IMG/VR virus record: IMGVR_UViG_3300020477_000021 | Reading direction: 5' to 3' (one strand) | Length of the DNA stretch: 20,000 bases | From: an uncultured virus (IMG/VR IMGVR_UViG_3300020477_000021) | Taxonomy: Duplodnaviria; Heunggongvirae; Uroviricota; Caudoviricetes | In this document: one piece after another, positions 3,184-9,734 of the stretch | Layout: the number at the start of each line of letters is the position of its first letter | How positions within the stretch are numbered: the stretch's first letter is position 1 | Made by a program: the position numbers and the translations under genes | Notes under the pieces: generated by a model | The model's database searches: none | What the model was told of the DNA's origin: nothing | Seen by the model: only the letters and a program-made list of their open reading frames with translations

Positions 3184-3390
3184 ATGTATAGTGAAAATTT
3201 ATATTATAAAGCATTGGAGTCTAAGTATCATGCAGAAATCGCAGAGTCAAAGGCTGTCTTAAAAACTTTCTTTGAAAAGGATGTTGGAGTTGCTGACCAT
3301 GCAGAATTTTTAAAAGTGTTTGATGACTATGTTTCTAAGATTGCATCTGCTGAAGAAAATCTTAGAGCTTTGCAAGAACATTTTGGTTGA
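3184..3390 (+). CDS. Conserved T4-like hypothetical protein
   Basis: GGAGG RBS; AL..KY.AEI...VGVADH pattern recalled from T4-like aquatic phages. Confidence 0.7.
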   Translation: MYSENLYYKALESKYHAEIAESKAVLKTFFEKDVGVADHAEFLKVFDDYVSKIASAEENLRALQEHFG

Positions 3391-3392
3391 TA

Positions 3393-3719
3393 ATGAAAGT
3401 AGAAGTTACTACAAGATATAGACCCGGTGTAAAGGATATCCAAGGTATGACTGTTTCTCGCGTATTAAGCGAAGACCTTGGATTTCCTGAAGTCAAAGAT
3501 GTTTGGATTGGTCAACTTTATCATTTGGAATATCCAGACGAAAAAGGTATTGAATATGCCAAAGAGATGTGCGAAAGGCAATTAGTAAATACTGTCTTGT
3601 ATGATTATAAAATAAGAGTAGTAGAGGAGTTTGGTGAAGGAATGGCTTATCGAGCTGAGAGTAATGAGCATAAGTCAATGTATGAAATAAGTGAAGAAAA
3701 ATTAAAAATCTATGAGTAA
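3393..3719 (+). CDS. purS: Phosphoribosylformylglycinamidine synthase subunit PurS, with C-terminal extension
   Basis: GVKDIQG...VKDVWIG...KEMCERQLVNTVLYDY matches PurS (VLDPQG...VRIGK...EMCEKLLANTVIEDY). Confidence 0.85.
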   Translation: MKVEVTTRYRPGVKDIQGMTVSRVLSEDLGFPEVKDVWIGQLYHLEYPDEKGIEYAKEMCERQLVNTVLYDYKIRVVEEFGEGMAYRAESNEHKSMYEISEEKLKIYE

Positions 3720-3720
3720 T

Positions 3721-3796
3721 GCTGGTGTAGCTCAGTTGGTAGAGCAGGACATTTGTAATGTTCAGGTCGCGGGTTCGACCCCTGCCACCAGCTCCA
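3721..3796 (+). tRNA. tRNA-Thr(UGU)
   Basis: 76-nt cloverleaf: acceptor GCTGGTG/CACCAGC, D arm GCTC/GAGC, anticodon loop TTTGTAA, T arm GCGGG-TTCGACC-CCTGC, encoded CCA. Confidence 0.97.
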
Positions 3797-4614: not shown

Positions 4615-4622
4615 TATAAATA
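4615..4622 (+). promoter_or_regulatory. T4-type late promoter
   Basis: Exact TATAAATA in the intergenic gap, 4 nt before ATG 4627. Confidence 0.75.
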
Positions 4623-4626
4623 ATAT

Positions 4627-5853
4627 ATGGATAACTTTAAGACTTTTATATCAGAAGCTAAGAATACCCATATGGAACATCTTGAGGATGAAATTCTCAA
4701 TAATGGGGTTACTGGTATAAAGACCATCATACAATTTTTGGTTTCACTTGGAAAATCTCTATCTGGACCTGGAATTTCAACTAAAGAAATGACAGTAAAG
4801 TGGGATGGAAAACCAGCAATTTTTGCAGGGAATGATCCTAAAACTGGAAAGTTTTTTGTTGGGACAAAATCCATTTTCAATAAGAATCCAAAATTGAATT
4901 TTACGAAAACAGATATACAAAATAATCATGGTCATGCGGCAGGACTTGCAGAGAAATTAGAGATTGCATTAACGTATTTATCAAAAGTTGGAATTCCTAA
5001 AGGTGAAGTCTGGCAGGGTGATATTATGTTTAGTAGTTCAGATAAATCTACGGAAAAAATTAATGATAAAACTTTTTTGACATTTCAACCAAACACAATA
5101 AAATATGCAGTTCAGGCTGGTAGTGATTTATATAATAGAATTAATAAAGCGAAGTTTGGAGTTGTTTGGCATACTAAATATACGGGGTCAGATTTAGAAG
5201 ATATGTCAGCTTCATATGGAGTTGATGTTTCTAAATTGAACCGTGTAAGAGATGTATGGTTTGATGATGCGAATTATCGAGATGTTACAGGAATGGCAAC
5301 ATTCTCTAAGACTGAAAGTAAGACATATAATACCATTGTAAAAAATGTTATGTCTCTGCAAAAGAAAGTCGATAAGAGGTTTCTTAGGACCTTACTAAAT
5401 ACCAAAAAGAGCATCGGGGTATTATATAAGTCTTATGTCAACAGTCGAATAAAGAGTGGTCAGGAAGTAGTAGCATCGCCTGTTTCTTATTATGAAGGTT
5501 TTTATTCATATGTCGGTGAATACTGGCAAAAGAAAATTGATGGAGTAAAAACCGATAAAGCTAAGAAACAAAAACGCATCATTAAAGACGAGGCTTTAGA
5601 TTGGATAGAAGGTAGTAAAACCAAAATAAAGAGTCTCGCGAAGTTTTATATTGAAGTAATAAAAGCAAAATTATTATTGCTTAGTGTACTAGACCGTGCA
5701 TCAAATATAAAACATTTCCAGGATATAGGAAATGGATTTGAAATAACAGGGCCTGAGGGATTTGTTGCAATACAAGGTGCTAAAGCAGTCAAGTTAGTTG
5801 ATCGAATGGTATTTAGTAAGGCAAATTTTCTTTTTGGGAAGTCTGCAAAATGA
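4627..5853 (+). CDS. DUF6267-like protein with ligase/covalent nucleotidyltransferase motifs
   Basis: KNTHMEHLED, TVKWDG (KxDG), QGDIMF, EGFVA and KLVDR; N-terminus FKTFISEA. Confidence 0.75.
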   Translation: MDNFKTFISEAKNTHMEHLEDEILNNGVTGIKTIIQFLVSLGKSLSGPGISTKEMTVKWDGKPAIFAGNDPKTGKFFVGTKSIFNKNPKLNFTKTDIQNNHGHAAGLAEKLEIALTYLSKVGIPKGEVWQGDIMFSSSDKSTEKINDKTFLTFQPNTIKYAVQAGSDLYNRINKAKFGVVWHTKYTGSDLEDMSASYGVDVSKLNRVRDVWFDDANYRDVTGMATFSKTESKTYNTIVKNVMSLQKKVDKRFLRTLLNTKKSIGVLYKSYVNSRIKSGQEVVASPVSYYEGFYSYVGEYWQKKIDGVKTDKAKKQKRIIKDEALDWIEGSKTKIKSLAKFYIEVIKAKLLLLSVLDRASNIKHFQDIGNGFEITGPEGFVAIQGAKAVKLVDRMVFSKANFLFGKSAK

Positions 5854-7292: not shown

Positions 7293-7300
7293 TATAAATA
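7293..7300 (+). promoter_or_regulatory. T4-type late promoter
   Basis: Exact intergenic TATAAATA followed by a GAGG RBS, upstream of structural-type genes. Confidence 0.8.
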
Positions 7301-7316
7301 ATAGAGAGGAATAATT

Positions 7317-7628
7317 ATGAGTTTAAAATCTGGAGTGATTAGGGGATTTGTAAAACCTAGTGGATATATTTATGCAAGTGATGACCAACATTATTATTTT
7401 AATGTAGACCAAGTAAAGGGAGCTATTGAAAACCATCAAACCGTAAAATTTTCAATAAATAATGAAGGTCATTGCGAAACTGTTTATGGACATGGTGCAG
7501 ATATTCCTAAAGATACAAAACCAAAAAAAGAAGTAAAACATAAAGTTATGCGAGATGGTGTTGTTGAACCAGAGTTTTTAACTGAAGATACACACCAAGA
7601 AGCTGAACAATCGTCTAAGGAGGACTAA
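7317..7628 (+). CDS. Hypothetical protein, possible cold-shock/OB-fold N-domain
   Basis: SGVIRGF..SGYI...QHYYFNVDQV...QTVKFSI loosely follows the CSD pattern. Confidence 0.5.
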   Translation: MSLKSGVIRGFVKPSGYIYASDDQHYYFNVDQVKGAIENHQTVKFSINNEGHCETVYGHGADIPKDTKPKKEVKHKVMRDGVVEPEFLTEDTHQEAEQSSKED

Positions 7629-7631
7629 CAA

Positions 7632-8222
7632 ATGGGTTCATGGGGAACGACACACGATTCAGTAGATAATAAGCCTAAATTTTTAACGGATGACGAAAAA
7701 GTGGATTGTTATGCAGATAATAGTGGTTGGACAGTAGCGGCTGGTGGAACAGATGATGCAAGTGCTGACCGAGAAGTATTGGTCGCTATTCGTGGTCTTG
7801 CTGGTACAAGTGCAACAACTGGTTTGAGAACGGCAACAGTTACAAGTATGAGATTTATTAAAGGAACAACCGCAAATACTGACTTAACTGCTAATGATGC
7901 AAATGCAGAAGTTCAAGTTGAAATTAGTTGGGATGAAGCTGTAACAGTTACGGGTTCACCTCAAGTTGTAATTGCTAATGGTAATCAAAGTGGGGGTGGA
8001 TATGGTAATCTTACTCTAACTTATACTGCAACTGGTTCAACTGCAAATAGCAAACGATTTATTAAAACAAGTGCTGGTATTGGTAATACAGATGTTTTAA
8101 CATTGGGTGGAACAAATATTGCTCTTAATAGTGGAACACTCAAAGATACTGCTTCTGGCACGGTAAATTCATCTGTAGCTTTAAATGGTATTTCGGCGGT
8201 AGTTGTAACAGTAGGAAGTTAA
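7632..8222 (+). CDS. Probable virion structural protein (beta-rich, Ig-like C-terminal part)
   Basis: MGSWG...KPKFL...GW...EVLVAI N-terminus; rich in T, G, A and N; WDEAVTVTGSP. Confidence 0.7.
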   Translation: MGSWGTTHDSVDNKPKFLTDDEKVDCYADNSGWTVAAGGTDDASADREVLVAIRGLAGTSATTGLRTATVTSMRFIKGTTANTDLTANDANAEVQVEISWDEAVTVTGSPQVVIANGNQSGGGYGNLTLTYTATGSTANSKRFIKTSAGIGNTDVLTLGGTNIALNSGTLKDTASGTVNSSVALNGISAVVVTVGS

Positions 8223-8252: not shown

Positions 8253-8690
8253 ATGCAAGAGGAAGCAGATACTCTTGTCTCTATGATTAATTCGTTAGGT
8301 ATTGAAGTTGTTCTGGTTTTACTACTCTTAGTTTCTGGAGGATGGGCCGTTAAGTTTTTACTTGGCAAATCCATTGATCTTGCAAATGGTTTTTTAAAAC
8401 AAATTGAAAAAAATATGGAAGAACTTACCGTTGAGTTGAAAGATGTCGATAAGCGATTGGTTGATGTCATTAATAGACGAAGACACGCTGACAACGAATC
8501 GTGGACAAGAGTAGAAAAGAACGTAGATAAAAAATTAAACGAGCAACAAGCAATTATTATTAAGTTAGTGGATCGAATCCGAATGTTGCAGGAAGATATG
8601 ATAAGGTTCGATACTATGTTCAGAGTTAAAAGTGACTTAGAAATTGACTATGACCGTTTAGGTAAAAGTGATAGGAAAGATAAAAACTGA
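8253..8690 (+). CDS. Membrane-anchored coiled-coil protein (holin-like architecture)
   Basis: AGGAG RBS; single N-terminal TM segment followed by heptad-rich helix. Confidence 0.6.
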   Translation: MQEEADTLVSMINSLGIEVVLVLLLLVSGGWAVKFLLGKSIDLANGFLKQIEKNMEELTVELKDVDKRLVDVINRRRHADNESWTRVEKNVDKKLNEQQAIIIKLVDRIRMLQEDMIRFDTMFRVKSDLEIDYDRLGKSDRKDKN

Positions 8691-8777
8691 GGTAAGCAAA
8701 ACTCCTATCTTGATTCAAGATTCCGAGTCCCGGAGAAGTTTTGTTTATCGTATGGTTGTGGTTGAGTCCCAATCATA
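8691..8777 (+). ncRNA. Candidate cis-regulatory structured RNA with two AGUCC-loop hairpins
   Basis: 13-bp stem 8691-8703/8737-8749 encloses two hairpins; a further hairpin at 8757-8777; the G-AGTCC-C loop occurs twice. Confidence 0.6.
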
Positions 8778-8808
8778 TCCAATAATTTTTAAATAAAGGT
8801 ATAAACTA

Positions 8809-9489
8809 ATGGCTGATAAAAAGATTACCGCATTAACCGCAGCGACATCCGCTGCGTCTGAAGATTTAATTCATGTTATTGATGATCCCTCTGGAAGTCC
8901 TGTCAATAAAAAACTTACTGTAAAGAATTTTGTTGGTGGAATTGCTCATACAACTACGGGTTCTGCAGCTGATACATTGTTGGCAGCAGTTCTTACTTGT
9001 GGTGATGGTCAAACCAATACGAATACTTTGACTGCTGTAAGTGGTCGAGCTGTTGCTAATGATGCAACGTCTGCGACTGCTGTTAAAGATATTTACGGTG
9101 GATATTTTGAAAGTTCACTTCAATCTACGAATAATACTGTAACGGGTAGAAACGCAGCTATTCGTGCTGTATGTGATATTTCTGATGGTGTTGCTACACT
9201 AGGCACAACTAATGTTATGTCTCTTTCTTTCAAAGAAGCTGGAACGGCACGAGGTGCAGCTCCTAATTCTTATATTGAAATTATGGAAGAAGCAACATCT
9301 GGTGCAAATCCAGCAACTTATCTGATGGATATTTTTCCGACAGATGGTAATGGAAATCTTACATTCCAAACCGGTGCTGACCTTGGTTTCTATGATGATG
9401 GTGGAGACAAAGCAACTGCTGGTGCGAAAGATGGTACGTTGAAAATTCGTGTAAACGGAGAAACTAAATATATTCAATTATGGAACTAA
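8809..9489 (+). CDS. Virion fiber-like structural protein
   Basis: MADKKITAL...DLIHVIDDPSGSPVNKK N-terminus and LKIRVNGETKYIQL C-terminus; rich in A, T and G. Confidence 0.7.
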   Translation: MADKKITALTAATSAASEDLIHVIDDPSGSPVNKKLTVKNFVGGIAHTTTGSAADTLLAAVLTCGDGQTNTNTLTAVSGRAVANDATSATAVKDIYGGYFESSLQSTNNTVTGRNAAIRAVCDISDGVATLGTTNVMSLSFKEAGTARGAAPNSYIEIMEEATSGANPATYLMDIFPTDGNGNLTFQTGADLGFYDDGGDKATAGAKDGTLKIRVNGETKYIQLWN

Positions 9490-9506: not shown

Positions 9507-9734
9507 ATGAGCTTTACAGTCGAGGATATTCAAAAACATCAACAAGAATTAGAAACCCATTTGCAAGAATTGGTAGAGACTATGGAAAAGCAAAAAGAAA
9601 AGATTAATGCTCTTCATGGCGCCATAACAACTTGTAAGTATTTTTCTAAATTGGTTGGTTCTGGTGGAGTTCATTCCTCCACCGGAACTAGTCCAGTTTA
9701 TGAAAACCAGAAAGAAATACCTTTTGGTGACTGA
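9507..9734 (+). CDS. Coiled-coil hypothetical protein (possible fiber chaperone)
   Basis: TAAGGAG RBS; heptad pattern; directly follows the fiber-like gene. Confidence 0.6.
   Translation: MSFTVEDIQKHQQELETHLQELVETMEKQKEKINALHGAITTCKYFSKLVGSGGVHSSTGTSPVYENQKEIPFGD

Follow-up and report, generated by a model that had tools for sequence, protein, structure and literature searches.

Which role can be assigned to the 118-nucleotide (nt) gap that separates a 145-amino-acid (aa) open reading frame (ORF) from a 226-aa ORF whose product starts with MADKKITAL? The question is raised by IMG/VR record IMGVR_UViG_3300020477_000021, of which a stretch of 20,000 nt (hereafter, the window) was analyzed, and which is a genome fragment of an uncultured marine T4-like myovirus. 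An earlier note, made from this sequence alone, had proposed that the gap (8691–8808) holds a new plus-strand structured RNA, with two hairpins sharing an AGUCC loop, in the leader of the downstream gene. The element filling the gap, at positions 8691–8781, is very probably a real, conserved, cis-acting RNA structure. Its constrained feature is, on the sequence comparisons made here, an AGUCC pentaloop closed by a G-C pair, which occurs twice in the window (hairpins P3 and P4).

Fold and conservation of the element in its own clade

The helices P1 to P4 that were first drawn (Table 1) are all present in the sequence, and RNAalifold, given only the alignment of the window with two relatives (L083 and L084), returns the same four, together with the outer helix around P4. 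In RNAfold, the plus strand of 8691–8808 folds with −31.4 kcal/mol, against −18.2 ± 3.1 kcal/mol for shuffled sequences (z score −4.25; 0 of 200 shuffles as good), while the minus strand has a z score of −2.10, with 4 of 200 shuffles as good. The structure of the earlier note is, at −31.0 kcal/mol in the window, only 0.2 kcal/mol worse than the minimum free energy (MFE) structure (−31.2 kcal/mol), which draws another P1 interior. G-U pairs are present in P1, in P4, and in the helices of the related A-type leaders described below; with the poorer fold of the minus strand, they indicate plus-strand polarity. The motif GAGTCCC is found twice in the 20 kb, both times in the element, for an expectation of 0.59; since 18 of 200 shuffles contain at least two, the twin motif alone is only mildly unusual, and it is the fold and its conservation that carry the case.

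Table 1. Coordinates of the helices of the element and of the flanking genes in the window.
Feature	Positions	Strand	Remarks
Upstream ORF, 145 aa, transmembrane segment and coiled coil	8253..8690	+	phrog_18771 match, E 1.3e-7
P1 closing helix, 13 base pairs (bp) including 2 G-U	8691-8703 with 8737-8749	+	Encloses P2 and P3, three-way junction; domain 8691..8749
P2 hairpin ATCTTG-ATT-CAAGAT	8707-8712 with 8716-8721	+	
P3 hairpin TCCG-AGTCC-CGGA	8722-8725 with 8731-8734, loop AGTCC 8726-8730	+	First G-AGUCC-C loop
Outer helix TGG/CCA, 3 bp, around P4	8753-8755 with 8779-8781	+	Missing from the earlier note; P4 module = 8753..8781
P4 hairpin, 8 bp	8757-8764 with 8770-8777, loop AGTCC 8765-8769	+	
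A/U-rich spacer with Shine-Dalgarno-like AAAGG (8795-8799), 9 nt before ATG	8782..8808	+	Unpaired in MFE and centroid structures
Downstream gene, 226 aa, MADKKITAL start	8809..9489	+	N-terminal domain of about 45 aa widely shared
Small coiled-coil gene, 75 aa	9507..9734	+	Resembles, by eye, small genes flanking MADKK genes in relatives

Five loci, all with the element at the same place, came from a metagenome scan in which the last 174 aa of the downstream protein served as query. L082 and L083 are near-identical to the window, and L084 to L086 form a clade with 69–74% protein identity. In L084, whose downstream protein is 74% identical, 33 of the 34 proposed pairs are kept. The only broken one is the innermost pair of P2, which retains 5 of its 6 pairs around a loop enlarged by at least 5 nt (from 3 to about 10 nt). 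Across the window, L083, and L084, 99.0% of the cells of the 34 pairs are paired. Five pairs differ on both sides between the window and L084, two of them in P1 (C-G to U-A both times, with 100% of the P1 cells paired) and three in P4 and its outer helix (G-C to A-U and U-A to A-U in the former, G-C to A-U in the latter); one-sided changes affect four to five pairs (three in P1 and two in the P4 module). Five double changes are reached by 3 of 500 shuffles, and registers slid by 1–3 columns give zero to one. The alignment of the window with L084 has gaps of 5, 1, and 4 nt, and the region is, therefore, non-coding. Two DNA patterns derived from P3 gave no match in IMG/VR.

The U-rich 3′ arm of P1 also bears on transcription. 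P3, written with its flanks as TTCCG-AGTCC-CGGAG, and the U-rich stretch 8736–8748 could constitute the intrinsic terminator of the 145-aa gene, in which case the P1 pairing would be incidental and P4 would be the 5′ hairpin of the next transcript. P3 followed by AAGTTTTGTT matches a simple terminator consensus (site 8721–8735; 5 pairs, 3 of them G-C). Three sites of this kind lie within 2.7 kb, where shuffled sequence has 1.3 ± 1.0, and the U-rich run is kept in L084. However, the stem has only 4–5 bp, P2 is atypically placed between the A-tract and P3, and nothing resembling a promoter is present between P3 and the gene. The U-rich arm is, moreover, base-paired within P1 and covaries with the 5′ arm (the two C-G to U-A changes), which points to selection for pairing, and no U-run follows the P1 domain in two of three A-type variants (L204 and L213; the common variant has TTTT or ATTT). 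A 232-nt metatranscriptome contig, covering 8656–8884 with one mismatch, joins the element to the ORF before it and to the start of the gene after it, although this is weak evidence. A terminator at P3 is quite improbable.

Exact copies of TATAAATA, which we take to be the T4 late-promoter consensus, are located at 4615–4622, 12 nt ahead of an ORF starting at 4627, and at 7293–7300, 24 nt ahead of one starting at 7317. They indicate T4-type late transcription in the source phage. The copy at 7293 is the nearest upstream of the element, with none just before it; the element is probably intercistronic within a longer late transcript. The RNA-library data consist of contigs, whose uncovered bins and depths are uninformative on expression.

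The AGUCC hairpin in the leaders of related phages

In several clades, loci upstream of homologous MADKK genes, collected as the earlier note had suggested, keep the AGUCC loop on stems that covary. Among 569 relatives retrieved from IMG/VR by protein similarity, 80 loci were kept (25 A-type and 55 non-A). The A-type loci correspond to an orthologue group of 226–250 aa, with about 33% identity, on contigs of up to 177 kb; some of these matches are cut by contig ends or restricted to the N-terminus. All 25, retrieved by protein alone, share a conserved leader with a single AGUCC hairpin, versus two in the window. It begins with TAAAT(A/G), at the stop codon of the upstream gene and 3–10 nt before the first pair of P1, a motif resembling the presumed T4 late promoter. 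A 10-bp helix follows, which has a single bulged U and surrounds a small hairpin whose loop varies, and then the module CUGG-UGGUG-AGUCC-CACYG-N6-CCAG, ending 2 nt before AAGGAG. The unpaired stretches are nearly invariant, whereas the neighboring coding DNA varies. Among 15 distinct sequences, the 23 pairs are 99.1% paired and 7 have changed on both sides, a count that none of 500 shuffles reaches; slid registers give 0–1 double-sided pairs. Diverged A-type leaders are found in L213 and in the L100 clade (L100 having been retrieved with protein P0011), and protein retrieval also places a hairpin just 5′ of the orthologous gene in L100 and L084–L086. The gene order is that of the window, namely an S-layer-like gene, the element, the MADKK gene, the small coiled-coil gene, and phrog_407-like and phrog_18642-like genes.

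A-type phages carry MADK paralogues as a tandem pair (280 aa, L012:1561–2403; 239 aa, L012:2501–3220), of which only the second is preceded by a late-promoter-like motif and a structured leader. In the A-type locus L183 (270–300), the MFE structure allows the 3′ arm of the outer helix, AGCCAG, to pair with the AUGGCU start, with the Shine-Dalgarno sequence enclosed in the loop, and this predicted pairing could work as an on/off switch. As a general feature, the AGCCA/AUGGCU pairing was rejected on inspection, being conserved neither in the window nor in L084.

In OM43 phage Melnitz and about ten related IMG/VR loci, GUCG-AGUCC-CGAC or GGCG-AGUCC-CGCC lies about 85 nt upstream of the MADKK gene, within the 3′ end of the small coiled-coil gene. 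The hairpin overlaps coding sequence (ESSPD versus GASPA) in L081:3906–3918 (Melnitz gene 24), L044, L048, and L074. The switch there from UCG/CGA to GCG/CGC preserves the pairing of the stem at the cost of two amino acid replacements, and thereby suggests that the coding sequence is also constrained as RNA.

For a direct comparison of the hairpins, 15 distinct 21-mers centered on the loop were taken from four leader contexts and chosen for stems of at least 4 bp, so that their pairing is partly built in by the choice, while covariation and loop invariance are not. G-AGUCC-C is invariant in these 15 hairpins, and each of the next three pairs takes 2–4 pair types. Double-sided changes affect 24 cells in total, as compared with 10.0 ± 2.2 after shuffling, and 0 of 500 shuffles reach 24. 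The claim that the loop is constrained while the stems covary, thus, holds in this set as well as in the A-type and window alignments. The sole loop variant encountered is AATCC (GAATC), in L046 and L051.

Because even this variant retains GANTC, the loop could be a signal at the DNA level, GAGTC serving as a site for CcrM-type methylation, or for nicking on an extruded hairpin. GANTC is linked to CcrM and to nicking enzymes, and the loop always contains it. Nevertheless, the conserved block comprises 7 nt (GAGTCCC) and not 5, the G-T pairs become A-C mismatches on the other strand, which folds worse, and GANTC is expected, by our own estimate, to be common in AT-rich DNA, which makes two sites unremarkable. 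Such a signal is extremely improbable.

The hairpin is specific to one gene. Across 408,884 nt of loci plus the window, both strands included, 44 AGTCC hairpins have at least 4 bp. All 38 that are closed by G-C share the strand of a MADKK-type gene and lie no more than about 100 nt before its start; the other six, with different closing pairs, are scattered. Four other phage records (177, 167, 105, and 141 kb) contain 13 GAGTCCC sites, with one hairpin per record, located at the MADKK gene. When IMG/VR was scanned with a pattern for the module of the A-type, 42 loci matched: 34 leaders with ATGGCNGATAARAAAAT behind them, and 8 unrelated sites that match by chance. A third AGTCC hairpin of the window (9685–9699, in the 75-aa gene) was judged to be due to chance, its closing pair being T-A; in the RNA-library contig of a related strain, its loop and both closing bases are changed without compensation.

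Short stems with a conserved pentaloop, present in one or two copies per genome and, in the A-type, directly behind a promoter-like motif, with the whole downstream block on the same strand, recall antitermination RNAs acting on RNA polymerase, either as a boxB-like tether for an N-like protein or as a two-domain RNA of the HK022 put kind, which would let transcription of the downstream block pass terminators. The lambdoid nut boxB, bound by arginine-rich N proteins, is likewise a sequence-specific pentaloop handle on a short, sequence-tolerant stem, found in one or two copies in phage leaders near a promoter. However, boxB loops (GAAAA or GACAA) are GNRA-like, sit on 5-bp stems, and belong to early operons, whereas AGUCC is present in 15 of the 15 distinct hairpins and precedes one gene of T4-like phages. 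Furthermore, no promoter is seen just upstream of the element in the window, and no boxA-like partner is evident and no N-like gene was identified, no search having been aimed at either. To our knowledge, antitermination is not a feature of T4-like late transcription. It is a very improbable function here.

A second conserved leader precedes other MADKK-type genes. The motif UA(A/G)NAU(U)CC is present in 50 of the 55 non-A loci, whereas GAGTCCC is present in only 10. In L026–L080, L081:3890–4000, and L222:1100–1200, this leader consists of a variable hairpin, A-GUA(G/A)NAUUCCC, a stem closed by CCC/GGG (with a GNRA-like loop or a large insert), UUUAUA, and the Shine-Dalgarno sequence. In some loci it is partly inside the 3′ coding end of a small coiled-coil gene, and in others (L049, L078, L169, and L222) it is fully non-coding. 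In L222, the order is hairpin, AUAGCAUUCCC...GGGUUUAUA, and Shine-Dalgarno sequence. No Rfam match at the gathering score was obtained for this second type.

As the earlier note had supposed, the element matches no known RNA family of Rfam, which is negative for it, for the rest of the window apart from a transfer RNA (tRNA), and for 25 relatives' loci. With Rfam 15 at the gathering score, the whole window yields only the tRNA at 3721–3793, and 20 relatives' loci yield nothing. At E values up to 10, the only match in 8600–8900 is CRISPR-DR8 (E 3.2, minus strand, outside the element), and five leader loci give, at E up to 5, only a chance match to a long non-coding RNA (E 0.75). ARAGORN places the sole tRNA or transfer-messenger RNA gene of the window, a tRNA-Thr, at 3721–3796, and none at the element.

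These searches also bear on the idea of a free-standing small RNA or a decayed tRNA-like gene, in which GAGUCCC and ...UCCA would correspond to the 3′ half of a T-arm and acceptor. GAGUCCC is the 3′ half of many T-loops and stems, which likewise form a helix capped by a small loop. GGTTGAGTCCCAATC...TCCA resembles a typical T-arm with one deletion, P4 and the outer helix would stack into 12 layers, the length of a tRNA minihelix, and the phage tRNA-Thr is 5 kb upstream. On the other hand, the loop has 5 nt in the window instead of 7, the window element is devoid of equivalents of the D-arm and anticodon-arm, and both ARAGORN and the tRNA model RF00005 (E up to 10, 8600–8900) are negative. In addition, L084 has TCA for CCA, with the pairing partner changed too, the geometry of the A-type module differs, and the position is always immediately 5′ of one gene. 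A tRNA-like origin, or an independent small RNA, is very improbable as well.

Cultured phages gave short matches only, none of them to the A-type leader. In the literature, no description of an AGUCC hairpin in a phage was found, and a broader search returned general motif-discovery papers only. A comparative genomics study of IMG/VR (Fremin, Bhatt, and Kyrpides 2023, PMC10690425) lists 10,006 candidate viral structured RNAs, some of them putative cis-regulators lying no more than 25 nt before a phage gene, as in the leaders of GP20 and GP32. The motif strings and four contig names are absent from the supplement tables that were searched, and overlap with one of the listed candidates is possible. 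Within the sources so covered, the element appears as a previously undescribed phage cis-regulatory leader RNA, with a protein-handle-like hairpin.

A possible docking site for protein, or a constitutive part of the messenger

The reading to which we give preference, tentatively and by analogy, is that of a gene-specific cis-acting leader whose AGUCC hairpins would bind a protein controlling translation or messenger RNA (mRNA) stability. A protein-binding hairpin is favored because the loop is invariant while the stems are rewritten, and because the hairpin lies on the sense strand, in one or two copies per genome, in front of a single gene, and within three leader architectures. A protein-operator mechanism as such is slightly more doubtful. 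The element would serve, on the sense strand, as the leader or the intercistronic spacer of the MADKKITAL-type gene, and would have two domains, the P1 helix with its three-way junction and then P4 with the outer helix, followed by the spacer and the ribosome-binding site. The AGUCC hairpins would dock a sequence-specific protein, the simplest ligand being a phage protein of the same gene block, that is, the product of the gene itself or the adjacent coiled-coil protein of 71–85 aa. Binding would then set the translation and/or the stability of the MADKKITAL mRNA, and P1 may act as a self-contained stabilizing or insulating fold. The two-site operator of the earlier note does not generalize, since the A-type has a single hairpin and L222 none; the twin loops are confined to the clade of the window.

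Known operators offer several parallels. The T4 gene 32 leader, the gene 43 hairpin operator, and the RegA sites are also RNA structures in leaders of T4-type phages, through which the translation of a particular mRNA is repressed by a phage protein, in many cases the one that it encodes. They differ in sequence and overlap or abut the Shine-Dalgarno sequence or the AUG, whereas the element of the window leaves the ribosome-binding site free. In the A-type, the outer helix ends 2 nt before AAGGAG; in the window, the structure ends at 8781, with AAAGG at 8795–8799 and ATG at 8809. In the coat protein operators of MS2, PP7, and Qbeta, identity also resides in the loop and closing pair, and the stem may covary; the coat protein doubles as a translational repressor. 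Nevertheless, these operators contain the regulated start codon, have other loop sequences, and belong to single-stranded RNA phages.

Several observations weigh against a protein-binding leader. The ribosome-binding site is free in the window, 13 nt separating the outer helix from AAAGG and 27 nt separating it from the ATG; as the hairpins do not overlap the site, they would not obviously act by simple occlusion. The gene family can do without the hairpin, which is absent from 45 of the 55 Melnitz-type leaders, and a 45%-identical orthologue, L222, has a Melnitz-type leader without AGUCC. The clade of the window provides only three distinct sequences; covariation is absent within P2 and within P3, the latter being identical in all of them. 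For L084, a non-homologous P1 interior is preferred by 8 kcal/mol (−30.6 versus −22.6 for the proposed structure). A covariance model built from the 15 distinct A-type leaders has no match in the window at E up to 10, and L084 scores E 0.38 in a different register; the window element and the A-type are separate types that share the module, the two-domain layout, and the genomic position, and cannot be aligned as wholes. The RNA-library contig may be DNA carry-over, and contigs show neither ends nor strand. The terminator-like match at P3 counts here as well, and the ligand of the AGUCC hairpins stays a candidate only.

The main rival, unlikely in our judgment, is a constitutive feature of the mRNA without a dedicated regulator, namely a stabilizer at the 5′ end or between cistrons, an insulator by which the start region stays unfolded, or a processing site for a host RNase such as RNase III or RNase E, with a loop fixed by RNase recognition or by tertiary structure. 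The ompA-type 5′ stabilizers and the T7 RNase III intercistronic sites, which set mRNA lifetime and processing, are likewise stable, conserved stem-loops at or between cistrons. In the A-type, TAAAT(A/G) only 3–10 nt before P1 would make P1 the very start of the transcript. In the gene block that follows TATAAATA at 7293 in the window, the element occupies the one gap of any size, P4 is followed by an A/U-rich single strand, and the 13-bp P1 might stack on P3 to form a long, quasi-continuous helix. RNase III sites of the T7 type comprise about two helical turns with an internal loop. However, ompA-type and T7 sites need no invariant loop. A pure stabilizer leaves unexplained both the 7-nt invariant loop and closing pair across rewritten stems and the restriction of the hairpin to one copy, at one gene, in each of the four large phage records. 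The readings as a terminator, an antitermination RNA, a free small RNA, or a DNA-level signal are less likely.

A switch made of RNA only was also considered, in which the conserved CCU of the junction pairs with the Shine-Dalgarno region. The pairing energies range from −2.4 to −6.6 kcal/mol, and shuffled junctions equal them in 20–40% of trials; being no better than chance, this switch was dropped.

In its furthest extension, the protein-binding reading would make the G-AGUCC-C hairpin the RNA half of a new phage RNA–protein pair, portable between at least three unrelated leader architectures in abundant marine T4-like phages. This pair would couple the synthesis of one conserved, probably virion-associated protein to the state of assembly, autogenously or via the coiled-coil protein, as an operator–repressor system of the MS2, PP7, or boxB kind. 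Taken as a whole, this proposal is rather unlikely.

The downstream gene, its neighbors, and their significance

The window encodes, among others, DNA ligase, primase, thymidylate synthase, and ribonucleotide reductase, nearly all of its ORFs being on the plus strand, and has short DNA matches to Prochlorococcus phage P-SSM7 and to Melnitz (family Kyanoviridae). The TGA stop codon of the 145-aa ORF (8688–8690) directly adjoins P1, and no relative of its protein was found in IMG/VR. Further upstream, at 7632–8222, a 196-aa protein (phrog_11617) is annotated as ‘S-layer domain protein’ in P-SSM7 and as ‘putative S-layer protein’ in Melnitz; in all clades examined, its gene precedes the MADKK block in conserved order.

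The earlier note had called the downstream gene a fiber-like virion gene, a label for which Pfam, PHROGs, PDB, the ESM Atlas, and AlphaFold2 gave nothing usable. Among 8000 scored candidates, 1281 database proteins match the 226-aa protein at E up to 1e-5, and the names among the 120 matches listed are only “hypothetical” or “uncharacterized”. Pfam gives only LPD14, at 18.9 bits, under the cut-off of 27, while profile searches of PHROGs and PDB give no match and the ESM Atlas gives unnamed viral clusters only. With 36 sequences, AlphaFold2 predicts only a C-terminal beta-hairpin, at a mean predicted local distance difference test (pLDDT) score of 57.7, which does not permit a fold search. Hundreds of otherwise different proteins have the N-terminal 45 aa in common, an observation that would fit a shared attachment domain.

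A coiled-coil gene of 71–85 aa, with the motif ...G/NAL.GAI..C(D)..., always adjoins MADKK-type genes, upstream or downstream (window 9507–9734; L012:1318–1560 and 3242–3457; L081:3715–3972; L222:192–449). The motif ...INALHGAITTC... of the window gene is, by eye, similar to ...GNALSGAIQQCD... in Melnitz gene 24 and to ...LDGAIQVSNHY... in L012. These proteins have no PHROG or Pfam assignment, and could be assembly chaperones or partners of the hairpin.

Marine T4-like myoviruses belong to the most abundant viruses, and their post-transcriptional control is almost unstudied. The element is compact, well supported, and tied to one widely conserved gene, and its invariant five-base loop invites a direct search for a binding partner. 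If a specific protein binds it, it would show how these phages tune a late gene, and may provide an orthogonal tool for RNA tethering. Even if it is only a stabilizer or a processing site, it marks the gene as specially expressed, and the hairpin, combined with the MADKKI start, offers a sequence handle for finding this gene block in metagenomes.

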